In this document: piece by piece, positions 31,933 to 60,138 of the stretch | Numbering within the stretch: position 1 is the first letter of the stretch | How the letters are laid out: each line of letters opens with the position of its first letter | NCBI GenBank assembly: GCA_015486845.1 | Contig: WFQU01000020.1 | Span: forward strand, 13,214 to 77,213 | DNA length: 64,000 nucleotides | From: Anaerolineae bacterium | Lineage (GTDB): Bacteria > Chloroflexota > Anaerolineae > JAADDB01 | Reading direction: 5' to 3' | Made by a program: the position numbers and the translations under genes | Notes under the pieces: generated by a model | What the model saw: only the letters and a program-made list of their open reading frames with translations | Database searches by the model: none | What the model was told of the DNA's origin: nothing

Positions 31933-33015
31933 ATGCAAATAGGCATCATCGGACTGCCTAATAGTGGCAAAACCACCCTATTCAACGCGTTGACCAGAGG
32001 CAAAGCAGAAACAGAGGCCTATGCTTCTGCCCAGATGGAAGTGCACACCGCCATCGTAGCCGTTCACGATCAGCGAGTCGATCGTCTCAGCGCTATGTTC
32101 CAGCCCCGACGCACGATTTACGCCACGGTACAATACAATGACATTGCCGGACTGACCTCCAGCGCCGAGGAGAAAGGGATGAGCGGACCGCTGCTCAACC
32201 AGATCAGCGCCAACGATGCGCTACTGCACGTGGTGCGTTGCTTCACTAATCCGTCGGCCCCCCACCCCGCCGGCAAAGTCGATCCGGCGCGCGACCTGGC
32301 TGCGCTGGAAAGTGAACTTTGGTTCAACGACTACCGCATTTTAGAAGGGCGACAAGAACGGCTACAAAGCCAGGTGCACAAAGGCGGCTCACCGCAGGAG
32401 CGGGAACAAGCCGCTAAAGAATTGGCCGTGGTGGAGAAGTTAATAGCCGGCATTGAGAATGAATCCCCGGCCCGCACGCTTACGCTTTCCTATGAGGAAG
32501 AAAAACGCATCCGCAGCTTTTCGCTGCTCACCATGAAACCGGAACTGATCGTTTTCAACATCGACGACGAGGGCGAAGATCCAAGCGCCGCACTAACACC
32601 GAATTACCCCGACACCACGGGGGTCGCTTTACGGGGCAAGTTAGAAATGGAGCTTGCCCAGATGGAACCGGAAGAAGCAGCATTGTTCATGGACGAATTC
32701 GACATCCCCGAGTTAGGATTAGATCGAGTCATTCACCTTTCGTACGAATTACTCGGCTTACAATCATTCTTTACCGTGGGCGAAGACGAAGTTAGAGCGT
32801 GGACTGTAAAAAAAGGCGCCACCGCCGTGGAAGCTGCTGCCGCCATCCACACCGATTTAGGGCGCGGTTTTATCCGTGCTGAAGTGATCCATTACAACGA
32901 TCTCATTGCAGCCGGTTCCATGGCACAAGCCCGCAAAGCAGGTCTATTACGGCTAGAAGGGCGAGATTATCCTGTGCAGGACGGCGACATTGTCCACATT
33001 CGCTTCAATGTTTAA
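31933..33015 (+). CDS. ychF: Ribosome-binding ATPase YchF (Obg-family GTPase)
   Basis: MQIGIIGLPNSGKTTLFNALT is the G1 motif, and the C-terminal TGS domain ends DGDIVHIRFNV. The upstream 29 codons of the ORF are unlikely to be coding. Confidence 0.85.
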   Translation: MQIGIIGLPNSGKTTLFNALTRGKAETEAYASAQMEVHTAIVAVHDQRVDRLSAMFQPRRTIYATVQYNDIAGLTSSAEEKGMSGPLLNQISANDALLHVVRCFTNPSAPHPAGKVDPARDLAALESELWFNDYRILEGRQERLQSQVHKGGSPQEREQAAKELAVVEKLIAGIENESPARTLTLSYEEEKRIRSFSLLTMKPELIVFNIDDEGEDPSAALTPNYPDTTGVALRGKLEMELAQMEPEEAALFMDEFDIPELGLDRVIHLSYELLGLQSFFTVGEDEVRAWTVKKGATAVEAAAAIHTDLGRGFIRAEVIHYNDLIAAGSMAQARKAGLLRLEGRDYPVQDGDIVHIRFNV

Positions 33016-33046
33016 AGCCAGCCAGCCTCGGTACCGCCAACGGATT

Positions 33047-34396
33047 ATGCGTCACATCGTGGCATCATGGCTGGCGCTAATTTTCCTTTTAGGCACAGGT
33101 TTTCTGATTTTCGGGTCACCATATAGCCAGGCCGCATCGTCATGGCTGCCGTTTGCCTGCATCAACGACCGTTACGAGCCTAACAATGACCCGGCACACG
33201 CCACAGAGCTGCCCGACGGTCATTACGAAAATCTGCAAATCTGTGCGGGCGACCAGGATTGGTTTGCTGTGGACCTACCGGCTAACAGTTTCCTCGACGC
33301 CCAAACCACATTTAGCCGGGCTAGCGGCGACTTAGATATGTATCTTATCGACGCCAGTGGTCAGAGAACCTTGGCTTCCGGCAAACGCATCGTGGACGGC
33401 GAAACGATCCATTACGCCAGCCAACGGTCACAACGCGCCTATGTGGTGGTCAATGGCTTCAATGGAGCTATCAACCGCTACACCTTGACAATCAACCGCT
33501 GCGTGGACGATCCTTACGAAGAGAATGACGTGCCCAATCAGGCTAAGCGCATCTCGCCGGGACATTACGATCTGCATTTGTGCCAGGATAGCGAGCACCC
33601 GGACCAGGATTGGTTCGCTGTGGACCTGCCGGCCAACAGCGCCTTAGTCGTGGACTTGACCTTCAGCAACGCCAACGGCGACTTGGATCTCTATCTTACC
33701 AATGGCAACGGCAGTCGCACTTTCAGCAGCGGCAGTACCCCTACGGACAACGAACACGCCGCGGTGGTGATCAAAACGGCGCAACGCGTGCTCATCAACG
33801 TCGACGGCTATCACGGCGCTTCCAACGCTTATGGGATGGACGTCGCGGTGACGAACCTGGGCGTTTGCCAGCCGGATGCCGCCGAGCCTAACAACAACAT
33901 CGCCTCGGCCTACAATCTAACGCCGGGCACCATAGCCGATCTCACCCTTTGCCCGGACGATACCGACTATTTCAGCGTTACGCTCCCCGCCGGCGCCCGC
34001 ATGACGGGTGACATCACATTCCGCAACGATTTCGGTGACATAGACCTTTTCCTACTGGACGATACAGGCCATGTTTTAGCCGCCAGCCGCGGTATTATGA
34101 CCGACAGGGAAGCCATTACCTACACGACCTCCCTCAGCGCAAACTATTTTTGGCAAGTCGTGGGTGACCTGGAGGTCGGCAACCCGTACACGCTAACCTA
34201 CTCCCTGGCTACGGCGACGCCAACCCCCACGGTTACACCGACGCCTACAGCAACAGGAACAGCCACAGCCACACCAACAGCCACGGCAACAGCAACACCC
34301 ACAGTTACGGTCACGCCCATGACAACACCTACGGCATCGCCAACGCCCACATTTACTATCTATTTGCCACTACTGACTAATGTGGGCGGCAACTAA
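33047..34396 (+). CDS. Secreted protein with 4 pre-peptidase C-terminal (PPC)-like domains and PT-rich C-terminal tail
   Basis: A signal peptide, then four repeats of the pattern EPNND...A..L..G.Y..L.IC..DQDWFAVDLPANS...GDLDLYL. It ends with a TPTPTVTPTPTATGTATATPTATATATPTVTVTP low-complexity tail. Confidence 0.65.
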   Translation: MRHIVASWLALIFLLGTGFLIFGSPYSQAASSWLPFACINDRYEPNNDPAHATELPDGHYENLQICAGDQDWFAVDLPANSFLDAQTTFSRASGDLDMYLIDASGQRTLASGKRIVDGETIHYASQRSQRAYVVVNGFNGAINRYTLTINRCVDDPYEENDVPNQAKRISPGHYDLHLCQDSEHPDQDWFAVDLPANSALVVDLTFSNANGDLDLYLTNGNGSRTFSSGSTPTDNEHAAVVIKTAQRVLINVDGYHGASNAYGMDVAVTNLGVCQPDAAEPNNNIASAYNLTPGTIADLTLCPDDTDYFSVTLPAGARMTGDITFRNDFGDIDLFLLDDTGHVLAASRGIMTDREAITYTTSLSANYFWQVVGDLEVGNPYTLTYSLATATPTPTVTPTPTATGTATATPTATATATPTVTVTPMTTPTASPTPTFTIYLPLLTNVGGN

Positions 34397-53422: not shown

Positions 53423-53437
53423 TATATTTGCTATCGG

Positions 53438-53507
53438 CGAACGGCTATCGGCTGCCGACCACTGGCTGCCGGCGAACGGCTATCGGCTGCCGACCACTGG
53501 CTGCCGG
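53438..53507. repeat. Perfect 35-bp tandem duplication (x2) in intergenic DNA
   Basis: CGAACGGCTATCGGCTGCCGACCACTGGCTGCCGG repeated twice head-to-tail, with a partial third unit just upstream. Confidence 0.85.
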
Positions 53508-53521
53508 CTACCGGCTTGTTT

Positions 53522-54688
53522 TCAACCATGCCGCCGGGCAAAGCGGGCGATGCGATTCAACGCCTCGGTGATCTGGTCCGTTGCCGTGGCGTAAGTGCAA
53601 CGCACGTAGCCTTCACCGCTGGTGCCGAAAACAGTGCCGGGGATGACTGCTACTTGTTCTTCAAGGAGCAATTTCTCGGCAAACGCCATGGCATCCATGC
53701 CGGTTATGGCCACAGACGGGAAGGCGTAGAAAGCGCCGCGTGGCTCGACGCAGGCCAGCCCAATGTCGTTGAGCCCGTTGACTAATATCCGGCGGCGCAC
53801 ATCGTACTCGGCGATCATGGCCTGTACTGCTTCTTCAGCCGCTGGATCGGTCAACGCGCTCAGGGCGGCATATTGGGACACAGTGGACGCACACATGATG
53901 GTGTACTGGTGCACTTTGAGCAAAGCCGATGCCAAAGCGTTGGGTGCCGCCGCGTAGCCGAGGCGCCAGCCAGTCATAGCGTAGTCTTTGCTGAATCCGC
54001 CTAAAAGGACGATGCGTTCCCGCGCCCCGGGCAGGCTGGCGAAACTGATATGTTGCCAGTCGTAAACCAAGCGGTCGTAAATCTCGTCAGAAATGATGAG
54101 CAGGTCGTGTTTCTGGGCAATCCGAACGATGGCGGTCATTATTTCCTGCTGCAACACAGTGCCGGTGGGATTATTCGGGTAGCCCATTAGGAGCGCTTTA
54201 GTGCGCGGCGTGATGGCCGCTTCGATTTCTGCTGGTACGGGCTGGAAGTTATTCTCGGCCCGGGTGGGCACGGTTACCGCTTTGCCGGCGGCCAACAAGA
54301 CCGGCGGCACATACCCGATGTAGGATGGTTCCGGCACGATGACTTCGTCGCCGGGGTCCAGAATGGCATCGAAAACGAGCCGCAAGGACTCGGAAACGCC
54401 GACGGTGATGATGACTTCGCTCTCTGGGTCGTAGCTGACGCCATATCGCTCTTGCAGGTTAGCAGCGATGGCCTGCCGCAAAGGAAGAATGCCCGAGTTA
54501 ACACTGTAATGGGTTTCGCCGTCTTGTAAGGCCTGGATGCCGGCTTGGAGAATTGGCTCCGGGGTCTTGAAATCCGGTTCGCCGATGCCTAAAGAAATGA
54601 TGTCATCCATAGTTGCCGCGATGTCGAAAAACTGTTTGATTGCATAGGGCGGTATGCTTGCTACTTTTTTCGAAATGTACTTACCCAT
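53522..54688 (-). CDS. Pyridoxal-phosphate-dependent aminotransferase, class I/II (aspartate-aminotransferase-like)
   Basis: The fold-type I pattern GIGEPDF...NNPTG...SFSKDYAMTGWRLGY, with the PLP lysine in SFSK. Confidence 0.8.
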   Translation of the reverse strand: MGKYISKKVASIPPYAIKQFFDIAATMDDIISLGIGEPDFKTPEPILQAGIQALQDGETHYSVNSGILPLRQAIAANLQERYGVSYDPESEVIITVGVSESLRLVFDAILDPGDEVIVPEPSYIGYVPPVLLAAGKAVTVPTRAENNFQPVPAEIEAAITPRTKALLMGYPNNPTGTVLQQEIMTAIVRIAQKHDLLIISDEIYDRLVYDWQHISFASLPGARERIVLLGGFSKDYAMTGWRLGYAAAPNALASALLKVHQYTIMCASTVSQYAALSALTDPAAEEAVQAMIAEYDVRRRILVNGLNDIGLACVEPRGAFYAFPSVAITGMDAMAFAEKLLLEEQVAVIPGTVFGTSGEGYVRCTYATATDQITEALNRIARFARRHG

Positions 54689-54754
54689 TCCGTCACCTTT
54701 CCGACCAATTTTCTCCAGCGTATTTTACCGCAAATGTGCTGATTCGCTAAAAGT

Positions 54755-55395
54755 TAGCTGCCCATGACGCGATGGGCATGCATCATGGGCCTGTAGCCTG
54801 CCTGTGCGGGCACGCAGACAGGCGCACCACAGCGGCCGAAAATGATGCGGCTGGTGTCAAGCCTTTAGTTAGGCGGGTTGGTGGGCCTACCACCGGCTAA
54901 AGCCTCAATGCCGGTGCAGCGGCGGGGCGCGTCAAGGTAACGTCCTCTGCCAAGAGGCTGCTTAACACCAGCCCCTTTCTAAGGGGCTTATCATTTACGT
55001 AGCACGGGGATTTGCCCCCCGTGCGCTCGGGCGGAGAACGCCGTCGATTAGAAGTTCAACTTTTTGAAGGGGGCCTGATTTTTTAGATGCTCCGCGCCTT
55101 AGCGCCACTGCGTCAACTTATTTTGAGAGGAGTTTGTCATTGCGAGGCCCGACAGGGCCGTGGCAATCTTCCTTACTGGCGTTGGAGATTGCTTGACCAA
55201 AAAGAGGGTCACACTGTCGCTTCGCTCGCAATGACATGACTGATTTGAAGGCGTTGCGTCAGCTATATTTAGGGGAGACCCCTCCTCTAAGCTGCGCTAC
55301 GCTTAGCTTTTTCCCCTCCCCGATACGGGGAGGGGAAGGCTTGCCGCCCCTTTAGGCGGCAAGCCAGGGGAGAGGTCTTATTTTCAGAGAAGGCA
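54755..55395 (-). repeat. R2 mosaic repeat, copy 2 (inverted relative to copy 1; carries extra ~250-nt internal segment)
   Basis: The reverse complement aligns with 24760-25140. The module order differs, and one hairpin shows compensatory substitutions (CCCCCTgaaaAGGGGG against GCCCCTTagaaAAGGGGC). Confidence 0.75.
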
Positions 55396-55460
55396 CCGCC
55401 GGGCGACCACAAGGATTTGCTCTTGCTTTTTGAATAGATGCGATTTATGTCGTTGAACTA

Positions 55461-57224
55461 TCACGGCCCCTGTGGAGGGCCTAACGTAGCAATTTGCGTT
55501 GGCTGCGGTGTGACGGTCGGCTGCGGTGAGTGGGTGTTGGTTGGCTGCGGCGTGTTGCTCGGCCAGGGTGTGCTGGTTGGCTGTGGCGTGGCGGTCGGCT
55601 CCGGCCAGGGTGTGCTGGTTGGCTGCGGTGTGGCGGTCGGCTCCGGCCAGGGTGTGCTGGTTGGCTGCGGTGTGGCGGTCGGCTCCGGCCAGGGTGTGCT
55701 GGTTGGCTGCGGTGTGACGGTCGGTTCCGACCAAGGCGTGTTGGTTGGCCACGGCGTGTCAGTCGGTTCCGGCCAAGGCGTGTTGGTTGGCCACGGTGTG
55801 TCAGTCGGTTCCGGCCAAGGCGTGCTGGTTGGCCACGGCGTGTCAGTTGGTTCCGGCCGGCGCGTGCTGGTTGGCCACGGTGTGGCGGTCGGCTCCGGCC
55901 GGCGCGTGCTGGTTGGCCACGGTGTGGCGGTCGGCTCCGGCCGGCGCGTGCTGGTTGGCCACGGTGTGGCGGTCGGCTCCGGCCAGAGTGTGCTGGTTGG
56001 CTGCGGTGTGGCGGTCGGTTCCGGCCAAGGCGTGCTGGTTGGCCACAGTGTGGCGGTCGGCTCCGGCCAGGGCATGCTGGTTGGCCACGGTGTGTCAGTT
56101 GGTTCCGGCCGGCGCGTGCTGGTTGGCCACGGCGTGTCAGTCGGTTCCGGCCGGCGCGTGTTGGTTGGCTGCGATGTGGCGGTCGGTCCCGGCCAGGGCG
56201 TGTTGGTTGGCCACGGCGTGGCGGTTGGTTGCGGGCTTACTAATTCCCTTCGGGATGTAGGCTGACGAGTGGGTACAACAACAGGCAGCGCTGTATCAGT
56301 TGGATAGATAGTATGCAACAGTGTCGGCGTTGCTATGAATGTAGGCGTTGGTGTTGGCCTTGGCATGCGTGTAGGCGTTAGCGTTGACCTTGGCGTGCAT
56401 GTAGGCGTTGGCGTTGACCTTGGCGTGCATGTAGGCGTTGGCGTTGGCGTGCCGGTAGATAATTCAGCCAATAACATTGTCGTGCGAGCTAATGTAACTT
56501 GAACCGGTTTCTGATCTGGCGGCGGCACTTCTCGAGAGAGACGCGTTAGTTGGCGTTGTGCTGTTTGCAATGTTTTACCGAATTGTTCTGTGGCGGCCAT
56601 TCGTTGTGGTACCGGTACAGCAGCCAATGCAGCTTGGGCTGATTGTACTGCTTGCCAATAATCGTCCAGCAATCGTGGATCGGGATGGGCATGTTGGTTA
56701 GCATAAGCGTATTCATCAAGGCGCCGTTGCGCTAACTGCGCGTAAACGACAGAGTGATCTTGGGGGGGGCGTGTTATCAGCGTGATGCGCTCAAGGGGAC
56801 GTTTTAGCTCGTATAGCGGTTGGCCGGGCATGCTGTGCATGGCAGCAGCATGTATACTAAGCCCGATGGCTAACAACAACACAGTGGTTATTAATGTTGG
56901 GGCTAAACGTGTCAAGACGCCTTTGGGCTGCCAAAAAAGTGCTCGCCATCGGGCTAAAGGCGATTGTTGCTCTTTTTGTAAGGCAGCATGCATGCGCGCT
57001 CGGGCTTTGTGCGTAGCTTGCGCTGAAGGTCGAGGTTGTTGAACAAGCAATAAGCGTCGAGCCGTTTCAACATAAGGCGCAACAGCTTTTTGTTCCTCAG
57101 CGGATAACGCTGTGTCTTGCTTAGGATCATAACCTCGCACATCTTGTTGTAGATGTGCGAGGGCCTTTTCTAAGATGTTTTCGTCCACTTCTGCGCTATT
57201 TAACCTCTCTATGCCACACGACAC
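55461..57224 (-). CDS. Putative anti-sigma factor with single TM helix and ~330-aa extracytoplasmic Pro/Thr-rich tandem-repeat domain
   Basis: It lies immediately downstream of, and overlaps, the ECF sigma gene. The N-terminal cytoplasmic domain is followed by a TM segment ([18 protein letters not shown]), then about 17 near-identical 14-aa units of [28 protein letters not shown]. Confidence 0.6.
55510..56230. repeat. Tandem 42-bp repeat array (~17 units) within anti-sigma CDS
   Basis: The unit is GGCTGCGGTGTGGCGGTCGGCTCCGGCCAGGGTGTGCTGGTT, with point variants. It generates spurious ORFs in several frames on both strands. A second short array of 33-bp units lies at about 56330-56460. Confidence 0.9.
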
Positions 57225-57873
57225 GCATATGATCTAATGCCCTATGCTGCAACGCTTTTATTGCATTTGTCTTCTTGCCCATAATTGAAGCTGTTTCTTT
57301 GATGCTGTAACCACGCAAAAAACGTAAAACGAGCACTTCTTGTTGTGCAGCTGGCAACCGCTGTAATGTATCCTGTATCATTTTAGCCGTATCCGCTTGT
57401 ATCACGTGATCCAGAGGCAATGTGCCCTTGTCGACGAGATATGGGGGCAAAGCATCTGTCTTTCTGATAGGAACATCGCGCCGGCGATAGTAATCAACGA
57501 CTAAATTACTGGCTATTCGTTGCAGCCATGCGCCCAAGCCACTGCCGGTTGGTTTATAAGTGCGGATGTGTTGCACTGCTCGTTCGAACACTGTGGCTGC
57601 TAAATCTTCGGCATCTTCTATTGTGGCTGCCCGATAGCGCATGTAAGCGTATATTTCTGGGTAATATCGGTTGAAGATGCTATCCCACGCATCTGGGTCG
57701 CCATGACGAGCGCGCTTTATCAAACTTGCCTCATTTGCAACCGCCAGTCCGTCTGCTTGGCTTTGTTGTCCTGTTCGACGAAAAGGGATAGATAAGCAAT
57801 CTGCCCATCTACTTACCCACATTAGTATAGTTACTGCAATATAGCGATTATCATCAAGTGTCTGAGTTATCAT
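57196..57873 (-). CDS. RNA polymerase sigma-70 factor, ECF subfamily
   Basis: Region 2 ([38 protein letters not shown]) and region 4 ([30 protein letters not shown]). The N-terminal ~40 aa may not be translated. Confidence 0.8.
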
Positions 57874-58632
57874 AGTTCTATGATATACTTTGGCCCCGTT
57901 CCCTGCAATTCCTGTAATTTCAAATTTACCCCGGCGCAGAAACAGATTCGAGAATCAGGCAGTTGGAAACCGCATCTATATTTGCTGAGCGTTACGCTTA
58001 GAAGGCGGCTAATAGTCTGCACCGGTGGACTGGACAGGCCTATCGCTCCGATTTTCTGTTGCTCGGCGTGAAAAAGTCTATTACCGGGCTGATACATTTA
58101 GCATTACTGTTGCTATTCATGTCCCCTATCTATTTGTGACTACTCAGCGATTCTAAGTCATAGAACCCAGATGACGCATATACCTAATAAATGCTGATTT
58201 TCTCTGATCTTGTCTGATTTATGGACAGCTGTGTAAGATCTGTGTTCTATTTGACCACGGCTGAGTAAATTTCTTTGTTTACTGCCCGAACAGGTCATCA
58301 GTATAGCGTACTAACTACACCAACGTGCGAATATGTTGAAAGGTTACGGTGAATTAATTCTCGGTAACTCCTGCGCAAAATCCTTGTTGGTTCGATATTC
58401 AGGTCGGTGCAGATCGGCCGGCGTCGCGACAGGACGAATAACTCAATTGCGTGCGAATTGGAACTAATTCTCAAGATATTGCATAACCTTTTCTGGCTCA
58501 CTTGCGTTGATTTGATTGGAAAGGTTATGACATGACTATTTTCGAAAGCGGTTTTGTCTCATGAGCGAAAAAGAAAATGCATTGTCAAACTGTTTTCCTG
58601 GTAAACAAATTCTTTCTGCGGAGGTATAAGAC

Positions 58633-60138
58633 ATGATGAAGAAACTATGGCGGTATGTCGTGATAGTAGCTGTATTGGCTATGGTGGGAAGCGCATTACC
58701 TATGATGAGCTTTGCAGCTATCAATGGTAATACAGCACCGGCTGTCTTACAGGGCGTCATCGAGAGCATGCCCGACGCGGGTAACATCGGCGTATGGCAG
58801 GTCAGCAATGTCCCGGTGCTGGTTGACGCATCGACGATTATCAGTGACCGAGCTGGAGCGCCCGACGTGGGCAGTTCGGTCAAGGTGCAAGGATTCCCGG
58901 ACGGGAATGGTGGTATTACGGCTAAGCGTATCAAAGTCGAAACCATGATGCCCGATGCTCAGTTAACGGGTGTTCTGGATGCTTTTGATGCCAATGGTGT
59001 ACTTGTTGCTGGCGTTGACATTGCTCGAGACGCTAATACGTTGGTTGTGGGCGCATTGCATGCCGACCAGTATGTTAAAGCACTTTTCGAAGTAGACCAA
59101 GCCGGGCAACGGATGGCAGTTCAGATAATCTCTGCGGAGGCTGAATACACGCCTGCAGTGGTTCACTTTGCAGGGCTTATTCAAACGGTGCCAGCTGGAC
59201 GTGCAGGAGATTGGATCATTGCCGGTCAGCATGTGCAAGTAACTGCGTCTACTTGGATGAATGAGTACAAAGGATTGGCACAGGTCGGCGCTATGGCGGC
59301 TGTGCAAGGCATACGACAGGCTAATGGTGTGTTGCTCGCCAGCAAGATTACCGTGCTGAAAGCGTTGAATGAGAATATGCCGAATCCTATTCATGCCTAC
59401 ACTGAATTTCAGGGTATTGTTGATGAACTGCCTGCGGGCACGTTTCTTGGAGCATGGCAAGTTAGTGGGCGTACAGTGAAAGTGACAGCATCTACCTACG
59501 TCGCAGGCGCGATAGAGGTTGGTGACCAGGTACTCGTGAAAGGGTATGTTTTGGCTGATGGTTCCGTTACGGCTGACCGCATTATAGCACTTGGTAGGGA
59601 AAACGGTACGCCAAGCGACCCAGGTAACGGTCACATGCCTACCGTGACGCCGACGCCGTATAACCCGGGCAGCGGCTGGATGCCGACAGCGACTCCGACG
59701 GCTTCTAACCCGGGCAGCGGTCACATGCCTACCGTAACACCGACGCCGTACAACCCGGGCAGCGGCTGGATGCCAACAGCGACTCCGACGGCTTCTAACC
59801 CGGGCAGCGGTCACATGCCTACCGTAACACCGACGCCGTACAACCCGGGCAGCGGCTGGATGCCCACGGCGACTCCGACGGCTTCTAACCCGGGCAGTGG
59901 TCACATGCCTACCGTGACGCCGACACCGTACAACCCGAGCAGTGGTCAGATGCCGACAGCGACTCCGACGGCTTCTAACCCGGGCAGCGGTCAGATGCCG
60001 ACGGCGACTCCGACGGCTTCTAACCCGGGCAGCGGTCAGATGCCGACAGCGACTCCGACGGCTTCTAACCCGGGCAGCGGTCAGATGCCCACGGCGACTC
60101 CCACACCTCATCATTATGGACCTTTCGGAAACGGTTGA
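58633..60138 (+). CDS. Secreted repeat protein: signal peptide, 3-4 internal ~90-aa beta-rich repeats (DUF5666-like) and C-terminal 15-aa PT/NPGSG tandem repeats
   Basis: Signal peptide MMKKLWRYVVIVAVLAMVGSALPMMSFA. Internal repeats have the form GxWQVSxxxVxVxAST...VGxxVxVxGxxxxDGSxTAxRI. The C-terminus carries about 10 units of PTATPTASNPGSGQM/PTVTPTPYNPGSGWM. Confidence 0.6.
   Translation: MMKKLWRYVVIVAVLAMVGSALPMMSFAAINGNTAPAVLQGVIESMPDAGNIGVWQVSNVPVLVDASTIISDRAGAPDVGSSVKVQGFPDGNGGITAKRIKVETMMPDAQLTGVLDAFDANGVLVAGVDIARDANTLVVGALHADQYVKALFEVDQAGQRMAVQIISAEAEYTPAVVHFAGLIQTVPAGRAGDWIIAGQHVQVTASTWMNEYKGLAQVGAMAAVQGIRQANGVLLASKITVLKALNENMPNPIHAYTEFQGIVDELPAGTFLGAWQVSGRTVKVTASTYVAGAIEVGDQVLVKGYVLADGSVTADRIIALGRENGTPSDPGNGHMPTVTPTPYNPGSGWMPTATPTASNPGSGHMPTVTPTPYNPGSGWMPTATPTASNPGSGHMPTVTPTPYNPGSGWMPTATPTASNPGSGHMPTVTPTPYNPSSGQMPTATPTASNPGSGQMPTATPTASNPGSGQMPTATPTASNPGSGQMPTATPTPHHYGPFGNG
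59630..60105. repeat. Tandem 45-bp repeat array within secreted-protein CDS
   Basis: The unit is CCGACGGCGACTCCGACGGCTTCTAACCCGGGCAGCGGTCAGATG, alternating with a variant. It produces the spurious antisense ORF 58963-60207. Confidence 0.9.

Follow-up and report, generated by a model that had tools for sequence, protein, structure and literature searches.

A BldN-like ECF sigma factor and a probable RsbN-type anti-sigma factor with a long, predicted disordered Pro/Thr/Trp tail in an Anaerolineae bacterium

The window analysed here, 64,000 nucleotides from an Anaerolineae bacterium of the Chloroflexota, carries an ECF sigma factor gene followed by the gene of a single-pass membrane protein (Table 1). 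We infer that both genes encode a sigma/anti-sigma pair of the BldN/RsbN type in which the membrane protein would bind the sigma factor, because the profile of the DUF5667 family ranks RsbN(1–91) first and because a Streptomyces rsbN locus carries DUF5667 as well. As the explanation of the whole locus we favour, with moderate confidence, a BldN-like sigma factor held by an RsbN-type anti-sigma factor whose disordered tail serves as a sensor of the cell wall or as a spacer. A pair from the Chloroflexota is thereby placed in the RsbN/BldN type, beyond Streptomyces, which was the sole reported home of RsbN homologues in the 2018 structure paper (PMC6101532).

Table 1. Features of the sigma/anti-sigma locus and its surroundings (positions in the window; aa numbers of the domains refer to the 575-aa product)
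Feature	Position	Strand	Basis or remarks
ECF sigma factor gene, BldN-like	57196..57873	(-)	225-aa ORF; ~50 aa N-terminal to region 2
Anti-sigma factor gene	55461..57188	(-)	Probable 575-aa product, start GTG 57188
Cytoplasmic N-domain, aa 1–75, putative RsbN-like class III anti-sigma domain	56964..57188	(-)	AF2 and family profile
Single transmembrane helix, aa 96–117	56838..56903	(-)	AF2 helix over a hydrophobic stretch of 22 residues
Juxtamembrane DUF5667 five-helix bundle, aa 120–245	56454..56831	(-)	Opens with a 14-residue family motif
Extracytoplasmic tail, 329 aa, no terminal domain	55464..56450	(-)	Composition P 30%, T 28%, W 6%
30-bp tandem repeat, 3.6 copies, ten-residue units	56339..56446	(-)	TRF, 91% matches
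42-bp tandem array, 14-residue consensus	55498..56234	(-)	TRF, 17.5 copies at 55498–56225, score 777–874
Artefactual ORFs of 275, 237, 171 and 63 aa	span 55438..56265	(+)	ORF list
Pair of directly adjoining perfect hairpins with stems of 12 and 11 bp	55311..55365		Repeat search
Divergent secreted protein, 4x DUF5666	58633..60138	(+)	Pfam DUF5666 E 1.5e-32, four stretches

The product of the sigma gene has sigma2 and sigma4 domains only, as in ECF (group IV) sigma-70 factors of about 200 residues. Pfam finds Sigma70_r2 (E 5e-14), Sigma70_r4_2, Sigma70_r4 and Sigma70_ECF in the ORF, and the score against TIGR02937 is 90.6 bits, above the cut-off of 42.9. The top match in NCBIfam is TIGR02952 (BldN family), the top match in the PDB is 6dxo_A (E 5e-24), and the protein is 38% identical to a Streptomyces bldN product. 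Nevertheless, the 135 bits reached against TIGR02952, the equivalog model of the BldN family (ECF121), stay below its cut-off of 206.45. Judged by its sequence the sigma factor is BldN-like and not a BldN equivalog. Members of the BldN family have an N-terminal pro-extension which is proteolytically removed (PMC7826278). With the predicted start codon the present ORF has ~50 residues before region 2, and this extension is not kept among the orthologues.

The original prediction described a sigma gene that overlaps a protein of 587 aa. Both ORFs exist, the longer reading of the second one running from GTG 57224 to 55461 on the minus strand; the overlap depends on the choice of this longest ORF. 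The alignment of the orthologues and the closest relative (P0001) favour the start codon GTG 57188, 7 nt after the stop codon of the sigma gene (57196–57198), and the gene callers are split between the two. Depending on the start chosen, the co-directional genes are separated by a 7-nt gap or share 29 nt. In eight orthologous loci (L001–L004, L019–L022) the anti-sigma gene lies directly after the sigma gene, and in our reading the two genes of the window form an operon. The same order is found in the more distant DUF5667 loci L005, L007, L008, L017 and L018. We examined six DUF5667 loci outside the orthologous set; in five an ECF sigma gene is located immediately upstream, and the sixth (P0022) is at the start of its contig. 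No matches were obtained when the non-repeat part of the anti-sigma factor was queried in a word-indexed search for homologues, and a metagenome scan with the single protein gave no relatives; a second scan, run with an alignment, yielded four loci. No bipartite promoter motif common to the seven orthologous upstream regions was found, a scan for sigma-70 promoters and terminators stayed at background level, and the Rfam and tRNA scans of positions 54500–58700 found nothing. The hairpins about 100 nt downstream of the anti-sigma stop codon are a possible terminator of the operon.

That an ECF sigma factor stands next to a single-pass anti-sigma factor is supported by the sigma2 and sigma4 domains, by the RsbN-like architecture and by the adjacency in many lineages, and the predicted cytoplasmic N-domain with one transmembrane helix is likewise recovered in the AF2 model. 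The non-repeat part is modelled (pLDDT 92) as three helices, the transmembrane helix and a five-helix bundle, with the three helices of the N-domain at residues 3–15, 30–48 and 56–75 (pLDDT >90). Basic residues ahead of the transmembrane helix suggest an N-in topology. When the profile of 123 members of the DUF5667 family was compared with 177,635 PDB sequences, the first hit was RsbN(1–91) (6dxo_D) at a marginal HMMER E of 0.0015. Hhalign aligned RsbN in the same register (E 0.0011, at a probability of only 20%). The best PDB matches of the sigma factor and of the anti-sigma family are thus two chains of one entry. RsbN is ordered at residues 4–21 and 39–79 and touches BldN with F14, L18, L43, L50, R67, L70 and M74 (PMC6101532). 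These residues align with L6, L10, Y39, L46, R63, M66 and L70 of the present protein, all of which are invariant among the orthologues except L10 and L46, which vary.

A check for an anti-sigma fold in the non-repeat part, proposed along with the original prediction, had a divided outcome: the three-helix model and the family profile speak for it, but searching the PDB with this part as a single sequence returned nothing at E up to 10, and Foldseek of the 250-aa model against the PDB gave only generic helical matches (14-3-3 proteins, TM-score ~0.19), which were discarded. A class I anti-sigma domain of the zf-HC2, RskA or RsiW type was considered and rejected, as Pfam at E up to 0.1 reports DUF5667 only and residues 1–75 are devoid of the Cys/His motif HxxxCxxC. 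What is found is the arrangement of the class III, RsbN-type proteins: a single transmembrane helix, then DUF5667 on the extracytoplasmic side, in a protein encoded next to and in the same direction as an ECF sigma gene.

The correspondence to RsbN–BldN of Streptomyces venezuelae (PDB 6DXO, PMC6101532) extends from the gene order and the modelled three-helix cytoplasmic domain to the juxtamembrane DUF5667 with its LPGxxLYxLKRxxE motif and the low-complexity C-terminal tail that lacks a terminal domain. The differences are the host phylum, Chloroflexota here, a likeness of the N-domains that appears at the profile level only, a sigma factor under the BldN equivalog cut-off and the tail itself, which in a Streptomyces RsbN homologue (L023) has ~110 aa and is rich in Ser, Gly and Asp whereas here it is much longer, rich in Pro, Thr and Trp and built of tandem repeats. 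One could argue that the downstream protein belongs to the envelope and is only transcribed together with the sigma factor or controlled by it, given that no significant single-sequence match to a known anti-sigma domain was obtained in Pfam, NCBIfam or the PDB. We find this hardly credible: the adjacency of sigma and DUF5667 genes is conserved across phyla, RsbN, a characterised anti-sigma factor, shares the domain family, and the three-helix domain is conserved at the positions where RsbN contacts BldN.

The DUF5667 bundle is modelled as all-helical (pLDDT 93–98), and its residues P121, Y126, E133 and R156 are invariant. In the present protein PF18915 scores 21–24 bits, under the gathering score of 27, but the orthologues reach 30–46 bits, and the domain is detected in 122 of 123 homologues. 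At a Streptomyces bldN–rsbN locus DUF5667 is present with the same LPGxxLYxLKR motif. Our literature search on DUF5667 found no papers. The family comprises more than 300 cluster representatives. Because of this size and the ECF sigma genes upstream of most of the non-orthologous members examined, DUF5667 may be the broader family to which the class III anti-sigma domain belongs.

Beyond the bundle follows the long Pro/Thr/Trp-rich region that had been noticed originally, and which is indeed there. Its description as a rigid stalk is not supported, as AF2 predicts no secondary structure for residues 250–575 (pLDDT 41–54) and nothing is attached at the distal end. Nor is the architecture unusual. 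All five complete Anaerolineae orthologues have tails of 281–381 aa with 54–63% Pro+Thr, interspersed Trp and His and no terminal domain, and we therefore assign the architecture to the lineage. At least 60 residues of tail, poor in hydrophobic residues, are present in 39 of the 123 family members scored, the C-terminal tail of RsbN is of low complexity too, and a disordered tail has already been published as a sensor for RsgI (PMC9732909). Long tails are thus normal for this protein family and the locus is fairly ordinary. The tails of this lineage have about three times the family median of 97 aa. The long tail is a lineage trait of which the composition and the approximate length are conserved and the sequence is not.

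Together these features suggest how the anti-sigma factor might work. The three cytoplasmic helices would keep the sigma factor bound to the membrane. Outside, the conserved DUF5667 bundle is followed by ~330 aa of predicted disordered Pro/Thr/Trp tail with a free end. Most likely this tail reaches into the cell wall or across it and serves as a disordered sensor or spacer, and its state would govern the proteolytic removal of the anti-sigma factor and hence the release of sigma. The last two steps are proposed by analogy with RsgI of Bacillus subtilis, whose extracytoplasmic disordered tail is a cell-wall sensor that tolerates scrambling of its sequence (PMC9732909). Both proteins are single-pass anti-sigma factors ending outside in a long disordered tail, and the sequence independence of the RsgI tail fits a composition that is conserved without a conserved sequence. 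The likeness is an analogy only. The sigma factor here is of the ECF and not of the SigI type, and the RsgI tail is charged and polar instead of Pro/Thr/Trp-rich. Membership in the RsgI type was rejected: Pfam and NCBIfam report neither an RsgI nor a SEAL domain, and the juxtamembrane domain is the all-helical DUF5667. The locus supplies a natural example of an anti-sigma factor that, apart from a small helical bundle, has a long, predicted disordered tail as its only large outer feature, and is relevant to the proposal, prompted by RsgI, that such tails sense the cell wall.

Alternatively, the pair could be what we propose while its tail is a neutral low-complexity appendage or simple spacer, with the array as a side effect of slippage during replication, or of unequal recombination, in DNA that codes for Pro and Thr, and the DUF5667 bundle alone acting as the sensor. 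The tail sequences of the orthologues defy alignment, Pro/Thr tracts are widespread in the family and two other proteins of the window have Pro/Thr-rich tails. In addition, of the codon changes relative to the consensus of the units 30 are synonymous and 33 non-synonymous, which indicates weak constraint. Still, length and composition including the regular Trp and His persist where the N-terminal parts of the orthologues have diverged to 33–41% identity, these tails far exceed the usual size in the family, and a tail without sequence constraint can still be a sensor, as the RsgI precedent shows. We consider a neutral tail possible but on balance unlikely. Secreted and membrane proteins of monoderm bacteria have Pro/Thr-rich linkers and tails of the same composition, which likewise tend to evolve through tandem duplication; unlike these the present tract is terminal, links nothing, is unusually long and has two Trp in every 14 aa.

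The 42-bp array comprises 16 clean 14-aa units (aa 331–554 of the 587-aa ORF) with degenerate ends and two Trp per 14 aa; three local sub-types are distinguished among the clean units (among them one with a 12-residue signature and one with PEPTATPQ…). It had been described as ~17 near-identical units over ~330 aa. The 17.5 copies are real, but the array proper accounts for ~224–245 aa of the tail, and the near-perfect DNA identity does not stand: TRF matches amount to 87%, the mean pairwise identity is 84.7% and 13 of the 16 units are distinct. Identical units are confined to one block of three and one block of two, the longest exact repeat being 91 nt. With units only ~85% identical, a recent expansion of the array as a whole is not borne out either. 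About two thirds of the tail in this genome would have been rebuilt by local tandem duplication of the 42-bp unit, probably in several small block amplifications and not in a single recent burst. The ten-residue units in front of the array were correctly predicted. An orthologous tail (L022) has a repeat of its own, ~33 aa in three copies. A diversity-generating retroelement was rejected, as the variable positions of the units are not adenine-specific. Viewed by itself, the array reflects the ordinary way in which low-complexity regions evolve.

The prediction that array length varies between strains fared less clearly. A second assembly (L025) spans the array with the same length and sequence as the window despite two SNPs elsewhere, which also excludes an assembly artefact or a collapsed array, and four other partial contigs are colinear, with the proximal 7 and the distal 3–4 units unchanged. 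No copy-number variation was seen in this small sample of consensus assemblies. Variation is plausible in principle, as the orthologue strain pair L003/L019 differs by one 45-bp indel in the tail, where 7 of 8 mismatches also lie. The idea of a contingency-type, fast-varying element that determines how long a rigid stalk is, with copy number differing between cells or strains and tuning the signalling, would further draw on the in-frame 42-bp units, on identical-sequence blocks reaching 91–126 nt and on the breaks of short-read assemblies inside the array. The unchanged length in two assemblies that differ by SNPs, the colinear contigs, the divergence of the units and a model with neither a rigid or folded tail nor a distal domain to position all argue against it, and we regard it as very improbable.

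A bolder reading, which we offer as a rather improbable speculation, is that in a filamentous subgroup of the Chloroflexota the RsbN-type anti-sigma factors evolved the Trp/His-studded Pro/Thr tail of ~280–380 aa as a length-calibrated probe of wall or sheath, with an RsgI-like mechanotransduction and with gain or loss of units retuning its reach between populations. The class III domain of RsbN, regarded as 'Streptomyces-only', would then be the founding structure of a multi-phylum DUF5667 family of anti-sigma factors.

The divergent gene at 58633–60138 codes for a product with its own C-terminal tail of 45/90-bp repeats (59628–60101, TRF). At other loci DUF5666 is either fused to DUF5667 anti-sigma genes or encoded beside them, and the protein is possibly a partner or a member of the regulon. 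Pro/Thr-rich tracts also occur in 32990–34396, in 58633–60138 and in a neighbour of L003. Finally, the array is a practical hazard: short-read assemblies are interrupted in it, and it gives rise to spurious ORFs. The four artefactual ORFs on the opposite strand were rightly recognised as such from the start, their frames not being conserved; the orthologues conserve the minus-strand frame only, and two further off-frame minus-strand ORFs run through the array. On the truncated contig L025 a gene caller chose one of the plus-strand artefacts.

The two genes are real and correctly located, and their reading as a sigma factor followed by its anti-sigma factor is supported. It can be sharpened, as gene order, the DUF5667 architecture and a match at the profile level point to a pair of the BldN/RsbN type known from Streptomyces venezuelae. 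The sigma protein has Pfam matches to sigma-70 regions 2 and 4 and to an ECF model. Among NCBIfam models it scores best with TIGR02952 (BldN family), at 135 bits, which is under the equivalog cut-off of 206 bits. Its top match in the PDB is 6dxo_A (E 5e-24), and it is 38% identical over 165 aa to a Streptomyces bldN product. The overlap of the two genes claimed in the original prediction exists in the longest anti-sigma ORF and was claimed because this ORF was taken. When the anti-sigma sequence is aligned with four orthologues and with P0001, the closest relative, the start falls at the GTG at 57188, yielding a protein of 575 aa that begins 7 nt past the sigma stop codon. Both candidate starts are used by automatic gene calls on other contigs. 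Further downstream, the 770 bp of positions 54689–55460 lack any ORF reaching 60 aa, and neither an Rfam nor a tRNA scan gave a match there.

Features of the sigma/anti-sigma locus and other features in the window
Feature	Position	Strand	Details
Sigma ORF	57196–57873	minus	225 aa
Anti-sigma longest ORF	55461–57224	minus	587 aa; co-directional with sigma ORF
42-bp tandem array	55498–56225		17.5 copies, 87% matches (Tandem Repeats Finder)
30-bp tandem array	56339–56446		3.6 copies (Tandem Repeats Finder)
Two abutting perfect hairpins	55311–55365		12-bp and 11-bp stems; ~100 nt downstream of anti-sigma stop codon
Secreted protein, 4x DUF5666	58633–60138	plus	divergently transcribed
45/90-bp tandem repeat	59628–60101		10.5 copies, GSGHMPTVTPTPYNPGSGWMPTATPTASNP; C-terminal tail of DUF5666 protein
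35-bp tandem repeat	53435–53516		2.3 copies, 95% matches; gatB–aminotransferase intergenic region
PPC-domain (pre-peptidase C-terminal) protein	32990–34396	plus	75-aa Pro/Thr-rich tract just ahead of C-terminus

The sole match of the non-repeat part of the anti-sigma protein is DUF5667, and it is weak (21–24 bits vs a gathering score of 27). Neither a single-sequence search of the PDB nor a word-indexed protein search gave a match for this part, and Pfam revealed no class I anti-sigma motif or domain in the protein. HMMER, run exhaustively against 1.84 billion cluster representatives, found 300 relatives at E up to 1e-3, just four of them under 1e-10. DUF5667 is present in 122 of the 123 relatives scanned and DUF5666 as well in seven of these 123. 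With the family alignment as input, AlphaFold2 modeled the first 250 aa confidently (mean pLDDT 91.8). The model has cytoplasmic helices at 3–15, 30–48 and 56–74, a short helix at 77–84, a TM helix and then a five-helix bundle at 126–244, at the start of which the invariant motif of the family is located (P121, Y126, E133, R156). Foldseek with the whole model returned no informative matches.

When the profile of the 123 relatives was compared to all PDB sequences, the top match was the 91-residue chain D of 6DXO (E 0.0015), profile positions 5–76 aligning to chain residues 6–76. The depositors labeled this chain 'BldN' in the PDB sequence file. Because its residues match those named for RsbN (F14, L18, L43, L46, L50, K63–A68, L70, V71 and M74; PMC6101532), we identify the chain by its sequence as RsbN(1–91). 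The label looks like an error and could mislead annotation; the names BldN and RsbN are also swapped in PMC7406223. A profile–profile comparison with Streptomyces RsbN fragments gave the same register (E 0.0011, probability only 20%). In this register the RsbN contacts F14, L18, L43, L50, R67, L70 and M74 would correspond to L6, L10, Y39, L46, R63, M66 and L70 of the window protein, all of which except L10 and L46 are invariant among the orthologues.

One Streptomyces protein homologous to the RsbN N-domain bears the NCBI name 'DUF5667 domain-containing protein'. In a Streptomyces locus (L023, Logan SRR653468; 1994–4247) a bldN-like sigma gene is followed by an RsbN N-fragment and then by an ORF with DUF5667, which comprises ALPGDSLYGLKRGIED, then helices and then a Ser/Gly/Asp-rich tail of ~110 aa, and shares 34% identity with the window protein over the stretch where TM helix and DUF5667 join. 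Judging from this naming and gene order, RsbN itself appears to be a DUF5667 protein with the full architecture of the window protein. In 2018 RsbN homologues were described as restricted to Streptomyces (PMC6101532), and no mention of DUF5667 was found in the literature searched. Since the top PDB match of the DUF5667 N-domain profile is RsbN(1–91), the class III anti-sigma domain may be widespread, with the DUF5667 family carrying it far outside Streptomyces. This suggested reach is the main wider value of the locus, which adds another example of a known arrangement and not a new kind.

Scanning 185,579 species genomes with the sigma factor yielded 12 loci, mostly in MAGs of Chloroflexota/Anaerolineae. 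The sigma factors of four of them (L001–L004) are 58–62% identical to the window sigma factor, and an anti-sigma orthologue is next in each; a metagenome scan added four more orthologous loci (L019–L022). In L005, L007 and L008 DUF5667 proteins come after the sigma gene; in L009 a protein bearing an SH3 domain follows immediately. In the search begun from DUF5667 proteins, an ECF sigma gene is directly upstream of both P0137 and P0004. Altogether five of the six non-orthologous DUF5667 loci inspected have such a gene directly upstream, the sixth lying at a contig start. The DUF5667 family comprises >300 cluster representatives at 50% identity. The DUF5666 protein encoded beside our pair may be a partner or regulon member, as DUF5666 is elsewhere fused to or adjoining DUF5667 anti-sigma genes. 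Its gene is not kept beside the closest orthologues; in L003 (4858–5628, minus) and L004 (4735–5583, minus) the divergent neighbor codes for a TM protein that combines a Pro/Thr linker with a bacterial SH3 domain. The three Pro/Thr-rich proteins in the window suggest a genome-wide habit.

In each of the five complete orthologues the C-terminal part is a Pro/Thr tail without a terminal domain (window, 329 aa; L003, 366 aa; L019, 381 aa; L004, 290 aa; L022, 281 aa). It is composition (Pro 30–35%, Thr 24–29%, with W, H, F and Y scattered in between) and length that are conserved: the N-parts are 33–41% identical, the tail sequences do not align, and the L022 tail has its own repeat (~33 aa, three times). 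In the wider family the tail after DUF5667 has a median of 97 aa and exceeds 250 aa in just 4/123; 39 of the 86 tails of 60 aa or longer are poor in hydrophobic residues, and 37/150 representatives have Pro/Thr tracts at least 40 aa long. The claim of an unusual architecture is not borne out. The full-length AlphaFold2 model leaves residues 250–575 without secondary structure (pLDDT 41–54), so that a folded or rigid repeat domain finds no support. As nothing is carried at the distal end, we speak of a tail and not of the rigid stalk originally envisaged.

We suggest that the three-helix domain would sequester the sigma factor as RsbN does, whose helix 3 lies between sigma2 and sigma4 and whose helices 1–2 lie on sigma4 (PMC6101532). 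Release might occur through regulated proteolysis, which for RsbN is likewise a proposal (PMC6101532), and the tail could be a disordered sensor or spacer threaded through the wall. The nearest precedent for such a function is RsgI of Bacillus subtilis, whose extracytoplasmic disordered tail is required for sensing peptidoglycan defects and is functional even when swapped or scrambled (PMC9732909), a tolerance reminiscent of the conservation of composition and not of sequence found here. The window protein gave no match to an RsgI or SEAL domain, and this likeness is therefore an analogy only.

The 42-bp array scores 777–874 at periods 42, 84 and 126 in Tandem Repeats Finder, and its GC content reaches 71%. 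In the protein it reads as 14-aa units, 16 of them clean and of one consensus, with degenerate ends; 10-aa repeat units stand ahead of them. The description of the 42-bp units as near-identical does not hold, as pairwise identity averages 84.7% (89% between neighbors) and 13/16 are distinct. They fall into three local sub-types, with one identical block of three units and one of two; exact repetition extends over at most 91 nt, and relative to the unit consensus there are 33 non-synonymous and 30 synonymous codon changes. Unit divergence and sub-type pattern indicate that an older, diverged array was locally amplified in several small steps and not in one recent burst.

The sigma protein is identical on three short-read metagenome contigs (L013–L015), which are colinear with the window and have the first seven units unchanged; each ends within the 42-bp array on one side and within the array of the DUF5666 gene on the other. 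Close to its end L013 has seven mismatches at 59775–59848. When the downstream aminotransferase served as query, contig L025 of the NCBI MAG GCA_027008065.1 was retrieved, which matches window positions 56866–49522 with two mismatches and no gaps and spans the whole array with the same length and sequence. It shares a SNP at 56350 with L013 and is therefore a different genotype from the window. The distal units are also present, with a single mismatch, on a further contig, L026. That the array arose as an assembly artefact is ruled out by the identical array of L025 and the colinear contigs L013–L015. The predicted copy-number variation was not seen among the window, L013–L015, L025 and L026, a small sample of consensus assemblies, which hide minority variants. 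Between the near-identical orthologous strains L003 and L019 a single 45-bp (15-aa) indel across 5.9 kb falls in the anti-sigma tail, as do 7/8 mismatches in its Pro/Thr part; either this is a real polymorphism, and length change occurs in tails of this kind, or it is assembly noise in a repeat.

Four ORFs on the plus strand, of 275, 237, 171 and 63 aa, and two off-frame ORFs on the minus strand also cross the array. On L025, where the true gene is truncated, the gene caller annotated an artefactual opposite-strand repeat ORF of 272 aa (602–1420, minus), an example of the false ORFs of which the original prediction had warned, now within public protein sets.
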